From positions 649-64,648 of the forward strand of contig DATKGU010000001.1 of the NCBI GenBank assembly GCA_035510635.1: DNA of 64,000 nt, given 5' to 3'. Below are positions 32,142-62,049 of the stretch, one piece after another; position 1 is the stretch's first letter, and the number at the start of each line of letters is the position of its first letter. The notes under the pieces are model-generated. The model made no database searches. It saw only the letters and a list, made by a program, of their open reading frames with translations, and had not been told where the DNA came from. Made by a program: the position numbers and the translations under genes. This DNA is from Minisyncoccota bacterium (GTDB taxonomy: Bacteria > Patescibacteriota > Minisyncoccia > Phycocordibacterales > SBAW01).

Positions 32142-33284
32142 CTAGTTGTGGTGCAAACCTCTAAGGAGCGCACTGCAGTCGGCTATAAGGTTTAAGATGG
32201 TGGGTTTGTTGGGCAGCGTCTTGTCTTTTGCGATAGTCGTGAGCACCGACACGATGTCGATGAGACAGCTATTGGTTGATTTGACCACAAAAAAGGTAAC
32301 GGTCGAAGTTGCGGTGTTGCCGTAGCTGTCGGTGGCAACAACCGATGCTTTGCTTACGGTGGGCGCCGAGCTAAGCGGAAGCGGCGCAGCCGGATTTATC
32401 ACTGTACCATTAAGCCAATAGACCACATGTGCAATAGGCGACTGGTCGGTAACGGTTGCGGTCAAAAACACCGTGTTGGTTTTAGCATACAAGCTATATT
32501 GGAGCGGAGAGGTGATAGTGACACTCGGCGGTGTTGTATCAACTACGGGCGCCGGCGTGATAGTGAGCGTGCCTGGTACAAAGGTAAATGCGTAGTTGTT
32601 TGCGGAGACCAACGTGCCTGCCGTGCAGGTGATAGGGTAGGTGCCCAGCGTGCTCGCGCTGGTGGCGGTGGTCGTACATTGCGCCGAGCCGGTTACGTCA
32701 TTGGAGCTTGCGGTGTCGGGTGCCACAAAACCGCTCAGCGTTGAGGTAAATGTTGGGAGAGATGCGCCTTGCACCATGCTTTGATTGTCAGCGGTCACGG
32801 TAAGAGAAAAACGCGGCCACTGCCAGGGAATCGTGGTGAGGTCGGGCGAGGTAGTGCCTTGGCCTGTTGTAAGGTAGGTATCAGTTACGAGTGCATCACT
32901 TAACGTTGACCCTGAGTATGCGGCAGCAAAATATGTATCGCCGGGATTTGGTGTGCCAAAAGAGTTGGGGTAAGAGATAAAAGAAAAGTACGGACTCCCT
33001 TGGACAAACCCAACATTAACCTCTGTTGCGTTGCCGATGGTGCCTTTGTAAATGCCAATCACTTTGTAGCTGCCGGTTTGAGGGATGGTGTACGTGCAGG
33101 TGCCGCCGTTTGTTGGCGCGTACGAGCCGCCTACTACAAAAGGCGCGGTGTACGGATCGCACGTGACACTAAACGGGAGAGGAGTTGTCGAAGGATTTGG
33201 AGCGCTTGCAACACTTGCCCATGCCACCGGACTTCCGATAAAGAGTAGTGCAACCAGAGCAACCACATATCCTGTGTATTTCAT
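32142..33284 (-). CDS. secreted protein with C-terminal Ig-like (DUF5011-like) domain
   Basis: Signal peptide MKYTGYVVALVALLFIGSPVAWA. C-terminal VATDSYGNTATSTVTF resembles the VATDTWGNTATSTRTV segment of the tail-fibre-like proteins. Confidence 0.6.
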   Translation of the reverse strand: MKYTGYVVALVALLFIGSPVAWASVASAPNPSTTPLPFSVTCDPYTAPFVVGGSYAPTNGGTCTYTIPQTGSYKVIGIYKGTIGNATEVNVGFVQGSPYFSFISYPNSFGTPNPGDTYFAAAYSGSTLSDALVTDTYLTTGQGTTSPDLTTIPWQWPRFSLTVTADNQSMVQGASLPTFTSTLSGFVAPDTASSNDVTGSAQCTTTATSASTLGTYPITCTAGTLVSANNYAFTFVPGTLTITPAPVVDTTPPSVTITSPLQYSLYAKTNTVFLTATVTDQSPIAHVVYWLNGTVINPAAPLPLSSAPTVSKASVVATDSYGNTATSTVTFFVVKSTNSCLIDIVSVLTTIAKDKTLPNKPTILNLIADCSALLRGLHHN

Positions 33285-33356: not shown

Positions 33357-34262
33357 ATGCAGCGATATCTCAGATATCTGGCAGCCGGTTTGACGCTCTC
33401 TGCGAGCTTGCTGGTGTGTCAGCCGGCCTATGCGGCAACGATACCCGGCCAGCAGTTAAACGTGCCGCAAGGCACCGCTTCGCTCAATTGGGCTGGATAC
33501 GTCGCTCAAAACTCAGGCACCTATACGAGCGTAACCGGTACGTGGACTATTCCTGCAGTGCCCGCAAACCCTTCGGGCGCGGCCGACGCCACATGGGTTG
33601 GTATCGGCGGGGTCCAAACGCACGATTTGATACAAGCAGGCACGCAAGCGCTGATAAACAGCAACGGCACCGTTACCTACACTGCGTGGGTTGAAACACT
33701 CCCCGGATACTCTCAAACGGTTTCTCTAGCTGTCGCAAGCGGCGACTCTATCACGGCAACGCTCAGCCAAGTGTCGCAGGATGTTTGGAGTGTTGTTATA
33801 AAAGACAACACCAGCGGGCAGAGTTATAGTGCGACGCTCAATTATGATTCGTCGCTTTCATCGGCCGAGTGGGTGGAGGAGATGGTCAGCAATCAAAACG
33901 GCGCGTTTATATCGCTCGACTCGTTTGGTATGGTCGGATTTACCGGCGCGAGCGCCACGGTTAATGGCACGAGTGAAAATCTTGCGGAGCTTAATGCGCA
34001 GCCGCTCCCGATGGTTAACAGTGCGGGCTCCATATTGGCAAGTGTCTCTGCGCTCGGCAGCGATGGCGCAAGTTTTAGCGTTACGCGCACAAGTGCCTCG
34101 CCAAGCGCGAGCGTGCCGCGCGGCACTGTAGGCCGCTGGCATGTCATACAAACGGCCACCTCAACACCGGGCGCCGACCCCGGCTTTACCTTTGTGCGCC
34201 GCTTGCGTGCGCAGACAGACGGCCGTCATATTGGGTTTAGCTTTGTGCTGATGCGATTTTAA
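33357..34262 (+). CDS. secreted peptidase G1 (eqolisin/scytalidoglutamic peptidase) family protein
   Basis: Signal peptide. NWAGY, WVGIGG, LIQAGTQ (catalytic Gln region), AEWVEEM (catalytic Glu region) conserved blocks. Confidence 0.7.
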   Translation: MQRYLRYLAAGLTLSASLLVCQPAYAATIPGQQLNVPQGTASLNWAGYVAQNSGTYTSVTGTWTIPAVPANPSGAADATWVGIGGVQTHDLIQAGTQALINSNGTVTYTAWVETLPGYSQTVSLAVASGDSITATLSQVSQDVWSVVIKDNTSGQSYSATLNYDSSLSSAEWVEEMVSNQNGAFISLDSFGMVGFTGASATVNGTSENLAELNAQPLPMVNSAGSILASVSALGSDGASFSVTRTSASPSASVPRGTVGRWHVIQTATSTPGADPGFTFVRRLRAQTDGRHIGFSFVLMRF

Positions 34263-34489
34263 AACAAAGAGGGAAGGCCAAACGACAGCAGTGTGGTGAT
34301 AAACATAAAAAATAAAAAAGTGAGTGCGCCGGTTTGAAAGGCCTGTATAAGCGGCTTTCTCTTTTCGGCATAATGGCGCGACATTTCCATGTAGTTGATA
34401 AGAAAAGCCACCAATCCTGCGAGGGTAGAAAAGACCGATCCCCACACCAAGAGGAAGGAAAAGAGCATACCTCTAAGTATTGCACACAT
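34259..34489 (-). CDS. possible small two-TM membrane protein (76 aa)
   Basis: Two hydrophobic helices. Sits in an otherwise gene-free gap. Weak. Confidence 0.3.
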   Translation of the reverse strand: MCAILRGMLFSFLLVWGSVFSTLAGLVAFLINYMEMSRHYAEKRKPLIQAFQTGALTFLFFMFITTLLSFGLPSLF

Positions 34490-34561: not shown

Positions 34562-34930
34562 TTGTTTATAAAAATAATGGCAAAAGATATGGACAAAGAG
34601 CACGGCGAGGGGTGCACGTGTGGGTGCCAAAATGGGATGTGCGGATGTCATGGAGGCATGTGCGGAGGCTTGTGGGGTCACTATCACTGGGGCCACATGA
34701 TTATCAAGCTTTTTATCGTATTGTTTATATTTTGGGCGGGCATGCAGTTTGGCGAGCTTAAAGCTGCTGTCGACAACTTTGAGGGCGGCGGCATGGGCTA
34801 CGGTCATAGTTCCTACTATCTCAATGGTGCGCAGGGCGACATGATGGGCGGTCGGACTACGTCTGCGATGCCTGCTCAGGGCGTCACCGTACAAATGATG
34901 CGCGTCGCCACCGACACTCCCCGCCAATAA
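34562..34930 (+). CDS. Cys/His/Met/Gly-rich small membrane protein, putative metal-binding
   Basis: CTCGCQNGMCGCHGGMCGG...HYHWGH followed by a TM helix and GGGMGYGH/MMGG repeats. Sits immediately upstream of the flavin module. Confidence 0.5.
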   Translation: MFIKIMAKDMDKEHGEGCTCGCQNGMCGCHGGMCGGLWGHYHWGHMIIKLFIVLFIFWAGMQFGELKAAVDNFEGGGMGYGHSSYYLNGAQGDMMGGRTTSAMPAQGVTVQMMRVATDTPRQ

Positions 34931-35033
34931 TTTCGTACTGACCTAAATCAAAAAAACACCCGATGCGGGTGTTTTTTTGTTGAATACCTGAAACGATACT
35001 AGGTCTATAGTCGTATATACTTATATCTACGGT

Positions 35034-35618
35034 ATGAAACGGTTTGCCCTTTCGGTGTTGGTGTTTGTGGCCTCTGGGGCCTATGTGGTGTACCAATACA
35101 TGGGAGGCAGCTTTGCGAGTGCCGCTATACCTGCGCCCACCGTGGTTGCTGTACAAACCACACAACCAGTTGCCACCACGCCTGCTACGACAGTCACAAC
35201 GCAGCCAAGTACCCCCACGCAAACAACAACTCCTACTTCAACACAAACGCCAACCCCAACTCAGGTACCAACACCCACTCCTACCCCTGTGGTAACACCA
35301 ACGCCGGCTCCCGTTGTTAAACCCAAGGGTCTATATACAGACGGCACCTATACCGGCAGCACCGCCGATGCCTACTACGGCACCGTGCAAGTGCAGGTCG
35401 TTATCCAAAATGGGAAAATAGTCACGGTAAACTTTTTGCAATATCCGAGCGACCGCCGGACCTCGCAATATATCAACGCACAAGCAATGCCGCAGCTTAA
35501 GAGCGAGGCAATCGCAGCGCAGAGCGCCAACGTAAGCGGCGTCTCGGGTGCATCGGACACGAGCGCGGCTTTTATCCAATCACTTGGCGATGCGCTTACG
35601 CAGGCTAAAAACGCATAA
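35034..35618 (+). CDS. membrane-anchored FMN-binding domain protein (PT-rich linker)
   Basis: YTDGTYTGSTADAYYGTVQVQVVIQNGKIVTV matches FMN_bind (NqrC/RnfG/PplA-like). Confidence 0.75.
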   Translation: MKRFALSVLVFVASGAYVVYQYMGGSFASAAIPAPTVVAVQTTQPVATTPATTVTTQPSTPTQTTTPTSTQTPTPTQVPTPTPTPVVTPTPAPVVKPKGLYTDGTYTGSTADAYYGTVQVQVVIQNGKIVTVNFLQYPSDRRTSQYINAQAMPQLKSEAIAAQSANVSGVSGASDTSAAFIQSLGDALTQAKNA

Positions 35619-35620
35619 CT

Positions 35621-36361
35621 ATGCGAGCTACGCGGATTATCATGGCTATGCCTGTGGTTGTGGAGATAGTCGGCGGCACCGAGGCCGACCTCAACACCGT
35701 GTTTGATTATTTTACAGCGGTCGACGAGCGTTTTAGCGTCTACAAACCGCACAGTGAGATTTCAAAAATTAATCGCGGCGAGCTGCATCTCAAAGATGCA
35801 AGCAAAGAGATGCAAGAAGTGTTTGTGCTTTCCGAAAAGACCCGCGAGGAAAGCGATGGGTATTTTTCTATCACCAAACCAGACGGCACCATTGACCCTT
35901 CGGGGCTGGTGAAAGGCTGGGCGATACAAAATGCCGCGCAATTAATTGAGCACATGGGGTATCACGATTACTACGTAGAAGTTGCCGGCGATATACAAAC
36001 CAAAGGCGTTGACGAAGTGGGCCAGCCGTGGAGCATTGGCATCCGCAATCCATTTAACCGCAACGAAATTGTTAAAGTGCTCTATCCAAAAGGGAAGGGC
36101 GTTGCAACCTCGGGTACCGCTATTAGAGGACAGCATATTTATAATCCGCATGACCTTGCGCAAACCTTTGACGACGTCGTGAGCCTTACGGTTGTGGGGC
36201 CAAATATTTACGAGGCCGATAGGTTTGCCACCGCGGCGTTTGCTATGGGGCGGGGAGGTGTCACGTTTATCGAGCAGCTCCCCGCGTTTGATGGGTATAG
36301 TATTGATAGCAAAGGCATTGCAACCATGACCAGCGGCTTTGAAGCACTCACCACCCTATGA
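35621..36361 (+). CDS. ApbE-family FAD:protein FMN transferase (short form)
   Basis: IDPSGLVKGWA, VATSGT ApbE blocks. Confidence 0.75.
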   Translation: MRATRIIMAMPVVVEIVGGTEADLNTVFDYFTAVDERFSVYKPHSEISKINRGELHLKDASKEMQEVFVLSEKTREESDGYFSITKPDGTIDPSGLVKGWAIQNAAQLIEHMGYHDYYVEVAGDIQTKGVDEVGQPWSIGIRNPFNRNEIVKVLYPKGKGVATSGTAIRGQHIYNPHDLAQTFDDVVSLTVVGPNIYEADRFATAAFAMGRGGVTFIEQLPAFDGYSIDSKGIATMTSGFEALTTL

Positions 36362-37869
36362 ACTTTATAGACAACTTTTTAAATCGCATCACCATGTACC
36401 GCTTGGTGCTGTATTACCTCGTGGGTTTGGTATTGGTTGCGTTTGTGTTTGGATTTTTTGGCATATTGCCCTATGACCCAACGGCTATCGCGTTTTCGAT
36501 GGTGCTTATCTTAGCCGTGTGTTGGGTCACCAACTGGGTGTTTGCGCGCGTGTTTGAAGCGGCCACCAACATTGAGTCGGTATATATTACCGCGCTCATC
36601 TTGGTGCTTATCATCAATCCGGTTATGGCCACCGATCACACCGGCGTCGGATTTCTTATTTTTGCCAGCGTGTGGGCGATGGCGTCAAAATATATTTTTG
36701 CTATCGGTAAAAAACATGTGTTTAATCCGGCTGCGTTTGCCGTGGCGTTGACCGCGCTGGTGTTAAACGAGCCGGCCACGTGGTGGGTAGGAGGCAACTT
36801 GGCGCTGCTGCCGTTTGTGGTAGTGGGCGGCCTGTTGGTGGTGCGCAAAATACAACGCTTTGACCTTGTGGCTAGCTTTGCAGTGGTGTCGCTTGCAACT
36901 ATTGTCGCGACCTCCGGCGGCAACTACACAACGCCCATTACGCAAACGCTCCTCCACTCGTCGTTTTTCTTTTTAGCGTTTGTGATGTTGACCGAGCCGC
37001 TCACCACGCCGCCCAACCGCTGGTTGCGCGTGTTGTACGGCGCGATTGTAGGATTTCTTTTTGCGCCCAACATACACATTGGCGGGTTTTATCTCACACC
37101 AGAGCTGGCGCTTCTCGTAGGCAACATCTTTGCCTACGCGGTGAGCCCCAAAGGGCGCTATATGCTCACCTTGGTTGGCATCGAGCAGATGTCCACCGAC
37201 GTATACGACTTTGTATTTAAAAGCGACCGCAGTTTTATGTTTAAACCGGGGCAATATTTGGAGTGGACGCTTGGGCATCGTTACCCCGACGACCGCGGCA
37301 ACCGGCGATACTTTACTATTGCCTCTGCGCCAAGCGAACAAAACATGCGCCTCGGTGTTAAGTTTTATACGCCGTCGAGCACCTTTAAGCGTGCGCTTGC
37401 CAACATGAAGGTGGGGGAGAAGATATCGGCCTCGCATCTCTCGGGCGGATTTGTGTTGCCAAAAGACGCTACAAAAAAGCTGGTGTTTATTGCAGGAGGC
37501 ATTGGCATCACGCCGTTTCGCAGCATGATCCAATACATGCTCGACAAAAAAGAGCGGCGCAGTGTCGTGTTGCTCTACTCCAACAAAACCGCCGCCGATG
37601 TTGCCTACAAACCTATCTTTGACCGTGCGCAAACAGAGCTTGGAATTAAAACGCTGTATGCCTTGAGCGCCGAAAAAACCCAAGTACCCGGCATGTTTAA
37701 CGGGAGTATTGATGCCGCATTAATTGCCGAGCAGATACCGGATTATAAAGAACGCATGTTTTATCTCTCCGGCCCGCACGGCATGGTAGACGCCTTTAAA
37801 CACACACTTGTCGGCATGGGAGTTTCGCGATTTAAAATTAAAAGTGACTTCTTTCCCGGCCTTGTATAA
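36358..37869 (+). CDS. RnfD/NqrB-like membrane domain fused to FNR-like FAD/NAD(P)-binding oxidoreductase domain
   Basis: HVFNPAAFAVAL and MLTEPLTTP (RnfD/NqrB hallmarks). C-terminal RYFTIAS (RxYS FAD motif) and GGIGITPF NAD(P)-binding motif. Confidence 0.75.
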   Translation: MNFIDNFLNRITMYRLVLYYLVGLVLVAFVFGFFGILPYDPTAIAFSMVLILAVCWVTNWVFARVFEAATNIESVYITALILVLIINPVMATDHTGVGFLIFASVWAMASKYIFAIGKKHVFNPAAFAVALTALVLNEPATWWVGGNLALLPFVVVGGLLVVRKIQRFDLVASFAVVSLATIVATSGGNYTTPITQTLLHSSFFFLAFVMLTEPLTTPPNRWLRVLYGAIVGFLFAPNIHIGGFYLTPELALLVGNIFAYAVSPKGRYMLTLVGIEQMSTDVYDFVFKSDRSFMFKPGQYLEWTLGHRYPDDRGNRRYFTIASAPSEQNMRLGVKFYTPSSTFKRALANMKVGEKISASHLSGGFVLPKDATKKLVFIAGGIGITPFRSMIQYMLDKKERRSVVLLYSNKTAADVAYKPIFDRAQTELGIKTLYALSAEKTQVPGMFNGSIDAALIAEQIPDYKERMFYLSGPHGMVDAFKHTLVGMGVSRFKIKSDFFPGLV

Positions 37870-37972: not shown

Positions 37973-38551
37973 ATGAGCCTCTACGAAAAAATAGCCACAG
38001 TCATAATCGTTATATTAGTGTTGATAATGGTTGTCTTTTCATACCACGAGTACAAAGAGCCGGCGCATGAGAGCGCCTCGGGCCCTAACTCGGGCTTTGA
38101 CCAAAGCATTGGTGCCGATTTTATCATTGGCCCGTACAACAGGGTGGTGAGCTCGCAGGTGTCGGGCGGCCTTGAGGATAATTGCACCGAGCTCCAATCT
38201 GTTTTTGTCGGCACACTCCACGATATTAAAGAGCGTCTTGAGCATTTAAAAACCTACACCGGTGTGGAGGATCCGTTTGAGGTTAATGAGGCAACGCTGC
38301 AGCTGTTGTGCAACAAAAATGTAACCCTAACGCTCAGCGACGCGAGCGACAACACGCTCGTGTTGCAAAAAATTCCGTTTGTACGAATGGTCCCGCAAAA
38401 TGGCGAGCAAGATGATATAGGCACCGAGGTGCACATCAATGCCACGCTGGTGCCCAAAGGGGGAGTAGAGCCGAGCCAACCCACAACCTATGGTGATGAA
38501 TTAATCCCCGACCGCTTCCTCGACGTAGCAACCTCGAGCCAAGTGCAGTAA
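37973..38551 (+). CDS. hypothetical N-terminally anchored protein (192 aa)
   Basis: Single N-terminal TM helix, no motifs recognised. Confidence 0.5.
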   Translation: MSLYEKIATVIIVILVLIMVVFSYHEYKEPAHESASGPNSGFDQSIGADFIIGPYNRVVSSQVSGGLEDNCTELQSVFVGTLHDIKERLEHLKTYTGVEDPFEVNEATLQLLCNKNVTLTLSDASDNTLVLQKIPFVRMVPQNGEQDDIGTEVHINATLVPKGGVEPSQPTTYGDELIPDRFLDVATSSQVQ

Positions 38552-38847: not shown

Positions 38848-39283
38848 AGTATTTGCGTTCAACATTACATTACCGAACGCTATCGTAAAAATATAGCAAC
38901 CTAAAATATCAGTAACTGTCAATATTAAGGTGAAGGTATAATACAAAGGTCTGGCACAGAAGTTAGTCACTGGCAGATATACCTACTGGAATTGGCTGGT
39001 AGGGAAGTACGTTAATAATGGTCAATAGGCACTTCAAGAAGTCGTCCGTCAGTGCAAGCGTTTCTGCACTCAGCTGAGCGACTTTGCTTAAGGCAAGCAC
39101 GACCGCCGCAAGGCTTGTAGTGTGAGTCAAGGTAATGTGCATGTTGATTATATAAACTAAGTAAAGTTCACCATTCCTGGCTATCTTTGGGTAGTCTTAT
39201 GACCGTAATAGCCCCGCGCTCCGCCGATGCATTTGCATTAATAAGGACACCAGGAGTCCGAGGAGCCGTGTGGGTATGAACTT
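38848..39283 (+). ncRNA. candidate RT-associated structured noncoding RNA (436-nt AT-rich region with extended -10 ggtataat and multiple hairpins)
   Basis: No ORF of at least 60 aa. TATAAT at about 38935. Hairpins agtgca...tgcact and ttgcttaaggcaagca. Located directly upstream of the RT gene. Confidence 0.4.
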
Positions 39284-40651
39284 ATGACTGAAGAACAAAG
39301 CATCTTACAGCAAACGTGGCTTCAAAAAGAAAGGTTAAATTTGGAACCAAGAAAAGACTATTCGCCAAAGCGGCAATATTTACATTTTGATAAACGCATA
39401 ACCTCGATAGACTCGGAGGTTCTAAAGAAAGTTTGGAATCCTAAAGCGGTAGCATCACATTCTTTTTATCCCTTCCTACGCGCAGTTAAAAGTGCCTATC
39501 TTTATAAACGTATTCCAGGTACCCGTAAACGGGGGTTGTTTAAAAAGAATCGACCTATAGATTATTCAGCGCACATGGATGCGTTAATTTTGTCTTGGTA
39601 CGCTTCCATCTTGTCAGAACTATACGAGCAAAAAGTTCGTGAGTTTGATGTTTCAAAAAATGCAATTGCGTATCGAAAATTGGATGGCAAGAATAACATT
39701 GACTTCGCAAAGGAAGTTTTTGACTTTGTTGGATCACATCCAGATTTTGTAGCCATTGCATTTGACGTAGAAAAATTTTTTGAAAATATAGACCATAAAC
39801 TTCTTAAAACATTATGGAAAGAACTATTAAAAGTTGGCGAACTCCCAGAAGATCATTACGCCGTATTTAAGGAAATAAGTTCCTTTCGATACGTTGATAT
39901 AAAGCAGATGCATAAACTGTTCGACTTTACTTTCAAGGATCAAGGCCGATTAGATAGGATATGTTCAACAAGAGATTTTAGGAATAAGGTTTGCGATGGC
40001 GGTTTTTTGAAGAAAAACCCTCGTGTTAATCAAAAAACTGGTAACTCTGTAGGTATTCCTCAAGGTTCACCGATAAGCTGTGTGATTTCTAACCTATACA
40101 TGCTTCCTTTTGATGCAGTAGTTGCTAAAAGAATACAAGACTTGGGCGGTATGTACAGAAGATATTCGGACGACATAATCATTGTGGTCCCAAGAGAAAA
40201 AGCTGACGAATGTAATTCTTTTGTTCAGAAAGAAGTCGGGAATATTGGCTTAAATATTAATGATTCTAAAACAGAAAAAGTTAAATTTTTGAATGAGGGT
40301 GGGCACATAGTTGCTCGTGACTGGAGTGAAAACGCAATTGCAAAATTACAATATCTAGGAGTTGAGTTTGATGGTGAGAATACTCGATTGCGTCATGCAG
40401 GCCTCGGGCGTTTCCAAAGACGTCGAGTGAGAAGTGTCCGACGTTTATATAATTGGTCAAAGCATAATAAAAAACCAATACCTATAGAGCCTCTAATAAA
40501 GAAATATACCCGTAAAGGAGGAAACAATTACCTATCTTATGCAGATACATCCAAAACTAAGCTCAACTCTAAGTTGATTGGCAAACAGACTTTTGAACCC
40601 CGGGTGGTTAAACAACTGAAAAAACTTCTTCCAAACAAAAAACACCCATGA
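39284..40651 (+). CDS. stand-alone reverse transcriptase (non-intron; retron/Abi/DRT-like)
   Basis: RT blocks FAIAFDVEKFFENIDH (1/2), GIPQGSPISCVISNLYM (4), RYSDDIIIV (YxDD, 5), LNINDSKTEKV (6), LGVEFDG (7). 150-aa N-terminal and basic 100-aa C-terminal extensions. Low GC. Confidence 0.85.
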   Translation: MTEEQSILQQTWLQKERLNLEPRKDYSPKRQYLHFDKRITSIDSEVLKKVWNPKAVASHSFYPFLRAVKSAYLYKRIPGTRKRGLFKKNRPIDYSAHMDALILSWYASILSELYEQKVREFDVSKNAIAYRKLDGKNNIDFAKEVFDFVGSHPDFVAIAFDVEKFFENIDHKLLKTLWKELLKVGELPEDHYAVFKEISSFRYVDIKQMHKLFDFTFKDQGRLDRICSTRDFRNKVCDGGFLKKNPRVNQKTGNSVGIPQGSPISCVISNLYMLPFDAVVAKRIQDLGGMYRRYSDDIIIVVPREKADECNSFVQKEVGNIGLNINDSKTEKVKFLNEGGHIVARDWSENAIAKLQYLGVEFDGENTRLRHAGLGRFQRRRVRSVRRLYNWSKHNKKPIPIEPLIKKYTRKGGNNYLSYADTSKTKLNSKLIGKQTFEPRVVKQLKKLLPNKKHP

Positions 40652-40670: not shown

Positions 40671-41035
40671 TGGTGGAGATGGCGCGAGTTGAACGCGCGT
40701 GCAATGAAGGTTTGCAGAGAGCTTCTACAAGGTGTAGGACATTTTAGTTTTCTTAGGCTCGGATGTTTAAAATGAGCAAAATCATTTTGAGCCGCAGATT
40801 GCAAGTTTCAACGTGTGGTCGAATCAACCCCACTCGCTATATCCTGTTTTATAACATCCTACATCCGCGATCAGGTCACGCGGAGAAGATGCGAGTTGCT
40901 TAGGCTAATGCGAAAGCGAACTCGTTCGCCGAGAAATACGGCGATGCAACTGACTTTGCAGTTATGGTTACCGGATTTTTAAGAAGTTCCGGACTTCTAC
41001 CTCGCACTCAATGCATGAGCCTCATTGTCTAGGCC
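40671..41035 (-). ncRNA. ssrA: tmRNA (ssrA)
   Basis: tRNA-like ends: 5' GGGGAUG pairs with 3' CAUCUCC giving a G3:U70 Ala identity pair, T-arm cgcgc-GUUCAAC-gcgcg, ACCA-3'. Internal tag ORF ...GCG AAC GAG UUC GCU UUC GCA UUA GCC UAA = ANEFAFALA-stop. Adjacent to smpB. Confidence 0.85.
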
Positions 41036-41049
41036 CGGCATCCCCATAG

Positions 41050-41511
41050 TTATTGATTTTTCAACGTGCGTTGTATGTCGCGTTTCGTGTCCCGCTCTTT
41101 TAAGACAGAGCGCTTGTCGTACTTCTTACGACCTTTGGCTATTGCCACGCGCATCTTTACCTTCGAGCCTTTATTATACACCGTCAAAGGCACTATTGTC
41201 AATCCTTTCTGGCCTTCGGCGTCGGCAAGTTTTTGCAACTCTTTTTTGGTGAGGAGCAGGCGGCGCGTGCGGCCGCTCTCGTACTCCTTTGGCGTGTTGG
41301 CCGGCTGGTAGGGAGGGATGTCCATACCCACAATATAGGCCTCGAGGCCACCGCGCCGCCCGCTCGGGCGCACTATTATATGTGCGCCCTCGAGCTTGCC
41401 GTGTTTGGCGCGGAGCGACTTTACCTCGTGGCCGAGCAACTCTAAGCCCGCCTCAAACTCCTCGAGGGTCTCGTAGTCAAAATGCGCCTTTTTATGCTCA
41501 AGCAAATTCAC
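41050..41511 (-). CDS. smpB: SsrA-binding protein SmpB
   Basis: SmpB family sequence immediately 5' of ssrA. Confidence 0.9.
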   Translation of the reverse strand: MNLLEHKKAHFDYETLEEFEAGLELLGHEVKSLRAKHGKLEGAHIIVRPSGRRGGLEAYIVGMDIPPYQPANTPKEYESGRTRRLLLTKKELQKLADAEGQKGLTIVPLTVYNKGSKVKMRVAIAKGRKKYDKRSVLKERDTKRDIQRTLKNQ

Positions 41512-61047: not shown

Positions 61048-62049
61048 TTATAGCGCTACAATATTTTTAGGTTCGCCCTTTTCAAAGCCGGCGATATTTT
61101 CAATAGTGGTGTCGAGGATGCGGCGCACGGCTTCATTAGTGTCAAAGGCAATGTGCGGCGTGATAATTACGCGCGGGTGGTTTATGAGGTAATGATTTTC
61201 GAGCACCACTTTGAGCTCCTCCTCTTTAGGGTGTGGGCCAGAAAGCAGAGCAAGCTCATCGCTCATGTCGCCCTCCTCCTCGAGCACATCAAGCCCGGCG
61301 CCCGCGAGCGTGCCGCTCTTTAATGCGGCAATAATCGCCTCGGTCTCCACCACTGCGCCGCGCGCGGTGTTGATAAGATACGCGCCTTTTTTAATGAGCG
61401 AAATATTTTGCAAGTTTATAAGATGATGCGTGTGCTCGTTGTAGGGGACATGGAGCGTGATGATGTCGGACTCTGCCAAAAGCTCCTCAAGCGTTGCGTA
61501 GCTAAAGTTATTATTTTTTGCGAGCGCTTCATCGCGATGTGCGTCAAACACCACCACGCGCATACCAAAGCCGTTGGCGATTTTTATTGCATACATGCCG
61601 ATGTGTCCGCCTCCGACAATGCCGATGGTCTTGCCTTGCAAATCAAAACCCGTGAGTCGCTCTTGCGAGAAAGAGCCAGTCTCGGATACTTGCTCGTGCG
61701 CCTCGCACACGCGGCGCGAGAGGGCCAAGATGAGCGCAAAGGCAAACTCGGCCACGGTGTTAACGCCGTAAGAGGGGACACTCGCCACCGCAATGCCGCG
61801 CGCTTTGGCCTCGGCAAGGTCGATATGGTCAAAGCCGGTCGAGCGCGTGGCAATGAGTTTGAGTTTTGGATATTTATCAAACACCGCTGCATCCACGTGG
61901 CCGTTAACAAACGTGCAAAGCATCTCAGCCTCGGCGTCGCCCGCGCTGTCTTGCACCGCGCCAAGTGTAAAAACAATATCTAACCCCGGCAGTTTATCTT
62001 TTATATAAGCCTCCTCCCAAGCCTCCTGTCCAAAATATACGAGTTTCAT
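61048..62049 (-). CDS. D-isomer-specific 2-hydroxyacid dehydrogenase (D-lactate dehydrogenase-like)
   Basis: GIVGGGHIG NAD-binding motif, catalytic R/E/H arrangement. Confidence 0.8.
   Translation of the reverse strand: MKLVYFGQEAWEEAYIKDKLPGLDIVFTLGAVQDSAGDAEAEMLCTFVNGHVDAAVFDKYPKLKLIATRSTGFDHIDLAEAKARGIAVASVPSYGVNTVAEFAFALILALSRRVCEAHEQVSETGSFSQERLTGFDLQGKTIGIVGGGHIGMYAIKIANGFGMRVVVFDAHRDEALAKNNNFSYATLEELLAESDIITLHVPYNEHTHHLINLQNISLIKKGAYLINTARGAVVETEAIIAALKSGTLAGAGLDVLEEEGDMSDELALLSGPHPKEEELKVVLENHYLINHPRVIITPHIAFDTNEAVRRILDTTIENIAGFEKGEPKNIVAL

Follow-up and report, generated by a model that had tools for sequence, protein, structure and literature searches.

We consider it likely that three adjacent genes, here named B, C and D, located in a stretch of 64,000 nucleotides from a Minisyncoccota bacterium (assembly GCA_035510635.1, contig DATKGU010000001.1, positions 649 to 64,648 of the forward strand; hereafter the window), encode, together with a downstream gene for a 192-residue protein (dn192) that accompanies them in this lineage, a module for transmembrane electron transfer of the flavinylation-associated "NQR/RNF-like" kind, belonging to a Paceibacteria-type bacterium of the candidate phyla radiation (CPR). 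B-C-D is an ordinary further copy of a gene set that has already been described, so that the kind of module is a known one. In a preceding sequence-only reading of the region, four co-directional genes, A to D, were proposed to supply compactly what flavinylation needs, namely ApbE and its FMN_bind substrate, along with a membrane oxidoreductase joining an RnfD/NqrB-type and an FNR-type domain. All four open reading frames (ORFs) exist on the plus strand (Table 1), and Pfam family matches were obtained for B, C and D and none for A. The flavinylation kit is borne out by these matches and by a motif in B, and the oxidoreductase by the occurrence of PF03116 and PF00175 in D. As a set of four genes the proposal did not stand, gene A being a separate unit, as described below; three of the four genes first reported form a genuine, densely packed operon.

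Conservation of the B-C-D operon and its assignment to the NQR/RNF-like systems

Genes B and C are separated by a gap of 2 nucleotides and genes C and D overlap by 4 nucleotides, a packing that is arranged for co-translation. The comparison was performed with 45 related loci, defined as those with a full-length D homologue, which belong mainly to Patescibacteria and, in a few cases, to Chloroflexota. The B-C-D order and the tight spacing are kept in most of these loci; in some of them, gene C lies a few kb off or on the opposite strand. The nearest D homologues (77-88% identity) were found in metagenome-assembled genomes of Adlerbacteria, Kaiserbacteria and Paceibacteria. A metagenome-assembled genome of "Candidatus Paceibacterota" encodes proteins identical to dn192 and, along its 77 annotated residues, to A. 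When the membrane domain of D alone was used as a query, 385 clusters (50% identity, E ≤ 1e-30) were obtained, most of them of about 500 residues, a length that most likely reflects the same fusion.

According to Méheust et al. (2021, eLife, PMC8238504), NQR/RNF-like systems are flavinylation-associated gene clusters that encode a PF03116::PF00175 fusion and have been reported mainly from Actinobacteria and the CPR. The definition asks for an N-terminal PF03116 and a C-terminal PF00175 domain in one protein, whose gene lies at most five genes away from ApbE or FMN_bind; the cluster must also encode one or more proteins predicted to be secreted. Both domains are present in D in this order, B and C lie directly 5' of it, and B is the predicted secreted protein, as judged from its N-terminal basic region and hydrophobic signal/anchor. 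Huang et al. (2024, mSystems, PMC11334425) describe a two-subunit complex modelled from Ktedonobacter, whose membrane subunit has no flavinylation site and in which the flavin of the outer subunit is suggested to sample the vacant site. The flavinylated Thr of NqrB/RnfD is likewise missing from D. All the testable defining features of the NQR/RNF-like kind are present in B-C-D.

The region had been regarded as notable for a streamlined genome, a view that we do not share, as the architecture has already been reported as typical of the CPR and Actinobacteria (PMC8238504) and as many as 385 clusters were found here. The system is thus widespread (hundreds of sequence clusters), and the genomic observation repeats the two earlier papers. 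The remaining interest lies in three points that go beyond the accessible text of both: an ApbE encoded in the cluster without an export signal, a downstream ectoprotein with a conserved Cys pair in the Paceibacteria clade, and an association with extracytoplasmic function (ECF) sigma factors.

Table 1. Positions of the module genes and of the neighbouring elements in the window.
Feature	Position	Strand	Description
Gene B	35034..35618	+	194-aa FMN_bind protein, PF04205, E 8e-8
Flavinylation motif	35535..35555	+	S-G-V-S-G-A-S, residues 168-174 of B
Gene C	35621..36361	+	246-aa minimal leaderless ApbE (FAD:protein FMN transferase), PF02424, E 6e-35
Gene D, whole	36358..37869	+	RnfD/NqrB-like::FNR-like fusion, 503 residues
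Gene D, N-terminal domain	36358..37158	+	RnfD/NqrB-like, membrane-embedded, residues 1-267; N-terminus inside, about 10 helices
Gene D, C-terminal domain	37159..37869	+	Residues 268-503, FNR-like, FAD/NAD(P)H-binding, cytoplasmic
dn192	37973..38551	+	192-aa membrane-anchored protein with two invariant Cys, 3' of D
Promoter-like motif	34989..35015	+	ECF-sigma-type, TGAAAC-N17-CGTA(TA), 3' end about 19 nt upstream of the B start codon (ATG)
Gene A	34577..34930	+	Cys/His-rich membrane protein of 117 residues with one helix; neighbouring gene outside the module
Terminator hairpin	34949..34979	+	A7-CACCCG-ATG-CGGGTG-T7, between A and B

Gene D encodes an RnfD-like membrane domain fused to a reductase domain

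Two Pfam families are matched by D, namely PF03116 (NQR2_RnfD_RnfE) at residues 151-260 (E 7e-8, 32.6 bits against a cut-off of 27.7) and PF00175 (NAD_binding_1) at residues 377-480 (E 8e-16, 59 bits), and NCBIfam places the C-terminal half among the FNR-type reductase domains (flavohaemoprotein, PaaE, NqrF). A phmmer search of the PDB with the membrane domain alone returned only SecG noise, and a family profile and hhalign were needed. The profile of the membrane family matched Azotobacter vinelandii RnfD (8ahx_D) with an E-value of 7e-5, and hhalign aligned the domain with Escherichia coli RsxD at a probability of 92% (E 7e-7). In a MAFFT alignment along full RsxD, the RnfD homology covers the entire membrane domain of D and is interrupted by a single gap of about 75 residues. 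The periplasmic loop with S-Q-A-T187 falls within this gap; by this alignment, T187 corresponds to the Thr of RnfD that bears covalent FMN, and its loop is deleted in D. A deletion of 120 residues derived from a weak hidden Markov model sub-alignment was dropped in favour of the MAFFT result. None of the 32 D homologues contains the pattern [ST]G[AS][ST], and T141, located at the junction in D, is variable (T, S, N, G, V or I). The RnfD-like domain anticipated by the sequence-only reading is therefore confirmed as regards its homology to RnfD/RsxD, but not as regards a flavinylated Thr.

Prediction of D with AlphaFold from the single sequence was useless (predicted local distance difference test score, pLDDT, of 47), and an alignment of 41 sequences was used instead. 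In the resulting AlphaFold2 monomer model (pLDDT 79.9), an FNR fold comes after about 10 helices. When the loop charges were placed on the helix map of this model, 10.2 Lys and Arg residues per sequence were counted on the inner side versus 0.8 on the outer side, and because of this strong positive-inside bias the FNR domain is assigned to the cytoplasm. The same domain matches the FAD domain of NqrF (7qu3) with an E-value of 9e-16, and Foldseek retrieved domains of flavohaemoglobin, NqrF and FNR with E-values between 1e-16 and 1e-13 and target-normalised TM-scores that reach 0.85. The motifs R-Y-F-T-I-A-S (residues 317-323, FAD), G-G-I-G-I-T-P (residues 380-386, NAD(P)H) and a C-terminal D-F-F-P-G are invariant. 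No haem, Fe-S or quinone motif was evident in D.

The residues N71, E73, S74, K111 and E213, acidic or polar and located in or beside predicted helices, are also invariant. Together with the homology of D to RnfD/NqrB, a subunit of ion-translocating complexes, this conservation would fit a remnant or minimal ion pump, i.e. a reduced RNF/NQR core in which the oxidation of NAD(P)H is coupled with the movement of Na+ or H+, or vice versa, and for which electron delivery to an outside acceptor is not the main purpose. We regard such a pump as improbable. Genes for RnfA/E, NqrD/E, RnfB/C or NqrA, or for any other RNF/NQR subunit, were found neither in the operon nor in the 45 related loci, and these are the subunits that the semicircular RNF/NQR electron path requires (PMC8238504). 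Moreover, the strong conservation of B and D as a stand-alone two-subunit set argues against decay.

Gene B encodes a tethered FMN-binding protein

The product of gene B starts with an MKR sequence and a hydrophobic anchor, continues with a linker of about 68 residues that is rich in Pro and Thr (60% Pro plus Thr), and has a C-terminal domain for binding of flavin mononucleotide (FMN). Its closest solved relative is 8p2a_A (E 6e-13), with which the motifs align. The flavinylation motif that an FMN-binding substrate of ApbE should carry is present as S-G-V-S-G-A-S, and FMN is predicted to be attached to Ser174 (codon 35553-35555), which aligns with the Thr of D-A-V-S-G-A-T, the flavinylated motif in 8p2a. 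A version of the motif, [DSN..]-x-[VI]-S-G-A-[TS], was identified in all 39 B homologues examined; its first position is Ser in this clade and Asp in many of the B homologues. The ApbE motif is D-x-x-[ST]-G-A-[ST], in which Ser is accepted as the terminal residue and the first Asp is dispensable, its change to Ala having a minor effect (PMC12052999). The seven-residue motif of B, which ends in Ser, conforms to this pattern.

As B contains no Cys, it has no lipobox. The N-terminal flank of its helix is more positive than the C-terminal flank in 36 of the 39 homologues, and on account of this charge bias a topology with the N-terminus inside and the C-terminus outside is predicted, with the FMN domain outside the cell. 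The extracytosolic location implied by the sequence-only reading for this domain agrees with the prediction. The possibility that B and C are parts of one gene interrupted by a frameshift was rejected, because B and C do not share a reading frame and the distance between them is not constant among relatives.

In the four loci with the most distant D homologues (L037, L038, L043 and L045), the FMN_bind gene is replaced by a gene for a 160-residue protein without a Pfam match. This protein, encoded directly 5' of ApbE, has the same layout as B and a variant motif, K-V-S-G-S-S-L-T. Pfam has probably overlooked a divergent flavinylation substrate in this protein.

Gene C encodes an ApbE without a leader

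Besides its Pfam match, C matches the ApbE structures in the PDB (E 1e-14), and its sequence predicts an ApbE fold with conserved FAD/Mg-site motifs; KGW, GD, ATSG, H172 and EAD..T are at least 90% conserved, and H-I-x-N-P is among the conserved motifs. The protein starts six residues ahead of the first conserved ApbE strand (M-G-T), and no upstream extension of the ORF is possible. The same type of start, M-[KR]-x-x-R-[IL]-[IL]-M-G-M-P, was observed in 29 of 32 related loci, among them that of the Ktedonobacteraceae relative. As BLASTP aligned only the C-terminal half of C with E. coli ApbE, the N-terminus was mapped using MAFFT, which revealed that C is without the lipoprotein leader and linker, 38 residues in all, of the E. 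coli protein. The N-terminal signal peptide or lipobox that is expected of an extracytosolic ApbE is thus not present in C.

It should be mentioned that several points weigh against an outward-facing NQR/RNF-like module. No hydrophobic leader, signal peptide or lipobox was found on the ApbE of the window or of the 32 related loci. For exported targets, a canonical ApbE has to be located outside the cytosol (PMC12052999), and the leaderless C is at odds with this; the canonical model does not explain its position beside a substrate that is predicted to be exported. The accessible text of the two papers on NQR/RNF-like systems (PMC8238504, PMC11334425) contains no discussion of a leaderless ApbE in the cluster that we could find. 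In the MAFFT alignment with E. coli ApbE, an internal segment of about 50 residues is also missing from C, and its activity is thus only predicted. The pairwise BLASTP comparison of B with E. coli RsxG was not significant, so that the link of B to NqrC/RnfG exists only at the level of the Pfam family. Finally, our literature search found no study that examined an NQR/RNF-like system by experiment; the direction of electron flow, the cofactors and the acceptor have all been inferred.

The features of C could be accommodated by an inward-facing arrangement, in which the FMN domain of B would be cytoplasmic, with the N-terminus of B outside, and would be flavinylated by the leaderless ApbE. B would then relay electrons between the FNR and membrane domains of D or serve a cytoplasmic reductase, and the module would not be an extracytosolic flavin system. 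Such an arrangement is consistent with the absence of an export signal on C in all 33 family members (the window and the 32 loci), in about 20 of which the ApbE ORF is not extendable upstream, and with the cytoplasmic synthesis of the ApbE substrate, flavin adenine dinucleotide (FAD). The only leaderless ApbEs known are those that serve substrates in the cytoplasm, for example the fumarate reductase of Klebsiella (PMC12052999). We nevertheless find it unlikely, since B starts with M-K-R/K-K followed by a hydrophobic helix, and its C-terminal flank is uncharged or acidic in the same 36 of 39 homologues, which points to the opposite topology. Moreover, a linker with 60% Pro and Thr is typical of exported wall-spanning proteins, and the published AlphaFold-multimer model (PMC11334425) docks the NqrC-like subunit on the outer face of the membrane subunit.

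Within the preferred outward-facing reading, B may be modified before or during its export, and modification in the cytoplasm would spare the export of FAD; it is relevant here that ApbE can modify a tag of only seven residues (PMC12052999). Other readings of the leaderless C remain, namely a location of B's FMN domain in the cytoplasm after all, or another export route. Tat-type export of pre-flavinylated B was considered and rejected, since the N-termini of B contain KR or KK and not RR. We also put forward, as a tentative and rather less probable extension, that the whole family uses a minimal cytoplasmic ApbE, either because the B-type subunit receives its FMN in the cytoplasm and carries it along on export, which would avoid FAD export in a reduced genome, or because the accepted outward topology is wrong, and that the Paceibacteria module is an ECF-controlled envelope response with the Cys-pair ectoprotein as a dedicated acceptor.

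A conserved downstream gene and a putative ECF promoter

In the nine closest loci, dn192 is located 3' of D, either directly or after one short ORF, and it has the same position in three further contigs with differing flanking genes (12 contexts in all). No terminator was found between D and dn192. In the encoded protein, a helix at the N-terminus is followed by an acidic ectodomain; C71, C113 and L-H-D at residues 82-84 are invariant. All of its 37 homologues are unnamed, and no relative of known function was detected in Pfam, NCBIfam or the PDB. Judging by gene context, dn192 is the conserved, lineage-specific fourth gene of the module, which replaces gene A in that role.

Other genes recur in the vicinity of the module: an ABC exporter in 11 loci, a D-2-hydroxyacid dehydrogenase beside the module in 8 loci, and VIT1 iron-transporter genes in 3 loci plus L082. 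The proximity of VIT1 is likewise remarked on in the published work on NQR/RNF-like systems. The window also contains a D-2-hydroxyacid (lactate-type) dehydrogenase gene (61051-62049, minus strand), whose product is 64% identical to the module-adjacent one of the eight loci; it is located 23 kb from the module and may be linked to the NAD+/NADH balance.

Upstream of gene B, a promoter-like motif, TGAAAC-N17-CGTATA, was identified (Table 1). It is the sole strict match in the 64-kb window, in which 0.3 matches are expected. The same motif is found 43-61 nucleotides upstream of B in three relatives (L003, L005 and L009), and degenerate versions are present upstream of B in four more close relatives (L001, L004, L007 and L034). 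The motif resembles ECF promoters of the Bacillus subtilis sigma-W type. Additionally, genes for an ECF sigma factor and a putative membrane anti-sigma factor were found directly upstream of B in 10 other loci. The conserved motif, together with the sigma/anti-sigma pairs in these ten loci, suggests that the module is under ECF sigma control. No ECF sigma gene was found in the 64-kb window, and no riboswitch (e.g. for FMN) was detected by Rfam ahead of B.

Proposed mechanism and its significance

We propose that the cytoplasmic FNR-like domain of D would oxidise NAD(P)H on bound FAD and that the electrons would traverse the membrane through the RnfD/NqrB-like domain of the same protein. The intramembrane carrier in D is probably a non-covalent flavin, by analogy with the riboflavin site of NqrB. 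The electrons would then arrive at the FMN that C is predicted to join to Ser174 of B via a phosphoester bond, and which would be held outside the membrane on the Pro/Thr tether of about 68 residues. This tether could let the FMN domain of B dock on D at the place where the RnfD flavin loop is deleted, and then reach a distant acceptor. Candidate acceptors are Fe(III) or another metal, reduced for uptake; oxygen or a host-surface oxidant, acting as a sink that regenerates NAD+; and dn192. The operon is probably transcribed from its own promoter of the ECF-sigma type.

To our knowledge, CPR bacteria are fermentative and have neither respiratory chains nor quinones. A module that carries electrons from NAD(P)H to a flavin on the outside would be one of the few routes by which they could dispose of reductant, reduce iron for its uptake or exchange electrons with a host. 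The predicted acceptor Ser174, the leaderless ApbE, the conserved partner ectoprotein and the likely ECF promoter provide handles for experimental work.

Gene A and the insertion context of the module

The ORF of gene A may also begin at a TTG at position 34562, the ATG at 34577 being the likelier start. Its 16 homologues share an invariant C...WGH[HY]HWGH motif ahead of one hydrophobic helix (invariant residues C22 and G34-H35-x-H37-W38-G39-H40), and the VQMMRV tail is also conserved. By this conservation, A is a genuine conserved gene for a small membrane protein, and the invariant GH[HY]HWGH and Cys cluster suggests metal binding.

Genes A and B are separated by a perfect hairpin of 14 bp (-18.3 kcal/mol, z -3.98; none of 200 shuffles was equally stable). 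From its structure, it is assigned as an intrinsic terminator for the gene A transcript, and it could, owing to its symmetry, work in both directions. The hairpin was missed by the consensus terminator scanner because its A- and T-runs pair with each other. A weak Rfam match to "RNAI" (34873-34980) was rejected, being merely the terminator hairpin. The 45 loci with D yielded no homologue of gene A. Two relatives, L076 and L078, have gene A and its divergent 76-residue neighbour with IF3 upstream and SmpB-FtsH-RecG downstream, and no B-C-D between; L076 additionally has MBG and Peptidase_A4 genes. Because of the terminator between A and B, the absence of A from the 45 loci and the presence of A without B-C-D in L076 and L078, gene A is placed outside the module, contrary to the earlier claim that the Cys/His-rich membrane protein belongs to it. 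As judged from synteny, A is resident at this site, whereas the flavin genes form a variable insert that separates A from the locus of transfer-messenger RNA (tmRNA) and SmpB.

The divergent gene on the other side of A (34259-34489, minus strand) encodes a protein of 76 residues with two helices (96-97% identity in relatives), and this pair of small membrane-protein genes is kept together in relatives. Further upstream are a gene for a secreted-looking MBG/Big_7 repeat protein (32142-33284, minus strand) and, adjoining it, a Peptidase_A4 (scytalidoglutamic-type acid peptidase) homologue, so assigned by its Pfam match (33357-34262, plus strand); both are kept in L076. The tmRNA gene (40671-41045, minus strand; Rfam RF00023, 91 bits, full length) directly adjoins SmpB (41050-41511, minus strand), and the variable block located between gene A and tmRNA consists of the flavin module and DRT2. 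Genes for tmRNA are a classic integration hotspot. The DRT2-type defence gene (39284-40651, plus strand) encodes a reverse transcriptase of 455 residues (PADLOC Drt2, E 3.7e-130) and is absent from the relatives with the same flanking synteny. It is preceded by a gene-free stretch of about 430 nucleotides (38850-39283), which could contain its non-coding RNA template, and the G+C content falls to about 0.45 around this region.

Comparison with known systems

The flavin-based extracellular electron transfer of Listeria monocytogenes follows a shared logic, in that electrons of cytosolic NADH reach an ApbE-flavinylated FMN_bind protein outside a single-membrane cell. The sequence-only reading had likened the region to this kit, with A as a further component and C, B and D in the roles of FmnB, PplA and Ndh2. 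Here, too, an ApbE and an FMN_bind substrate adjoin an NAD(P)H-oxidising membrane protein, and A is co-directional and rich in metal-binding residues. The likeness can be kept as a functional analogy, but a four-gene kit of the Listeria type is very improbable. The terminator and the separate occurrence of A and B-C-D among relatives speak against A as a component. D has no Pyr_redox/Ndh2 domain (K03885), B has no lipobox and one FMN_bind domain, compared with two in PplA, and C has no lipoprotein signal. The Listeria system has Ndh2, demethylmenaquinone, EetA/B, FmnA, FmnB and PplA, with both PplA and the ApbE as lipoproteins, whereas B is anchored by a helix, the ApbE is leaderless, and no quinone, EetA/EetB or ECF flavin-transporter genes adjoin the operon, which is without Ndh2, a quinone step, EetA/B or a flavin exporter.

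The cytoplasmic ApbE of Klebsiella pneumoniae resembles C in having no signal peptide. It serves a soluble cytoplasmic fumarate reductase (PMC12052999), whereas the only motif-bearing neighbour of C is predicted to be exported.

With RNF and Na+-NQR, the module shares an RnfD/RsxD-homologous membrane domain, an FNR domain that resembles the FAD/NADH domain of NqrF, and, in B, the FMN_bind family and the flavinylation motif of NqrC/RnfG. The canonical complexes are encoded by six-subunit operons with Fe-S subunits and carry covalent FMN on RnfD/NqrB; here, only two of the six subunit types (D-like and G/C-like) are present, without Fe-S subunits, the RnfD-like and NADH-binding domains are joined directly in one protein, and the loop with the covalent-FMN Thr is deleted. 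The electron flow, semicircular in RNF and Na+-NQR, is presumed to be one-way and outward in the module.

The NOX/FRE enzymes, such as the NOX of Streptococcus pneumoniae (8qta, which is in the Foldseek list), have the same fusion of a membrane domain to a cytoplasmic FNR-type domain and likewise direct electrons outward. Their membrane domain, however, is an unrelated six-helix di-haem ferric-reductase domain, whereas D has an RnfD-like domain of about 10 helices, which is presumably flavin-based and needs a separate flavinylated partner. By analogy, the module would work as a flavin-based counterpart of the NOX/ferric-reductase enzymes.

The closest match is the NQR/RNF-like system itself, from which B-C-D shows no essential difference. 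The PF03116::PF00175 protein, the FMN_bind and ApbE neighbours and the membrane subunit free of the flavinylation Thr are the same, and so are the taxa (CPR), with a Ktedonobacteraceae relative (L035) at 49% identity.

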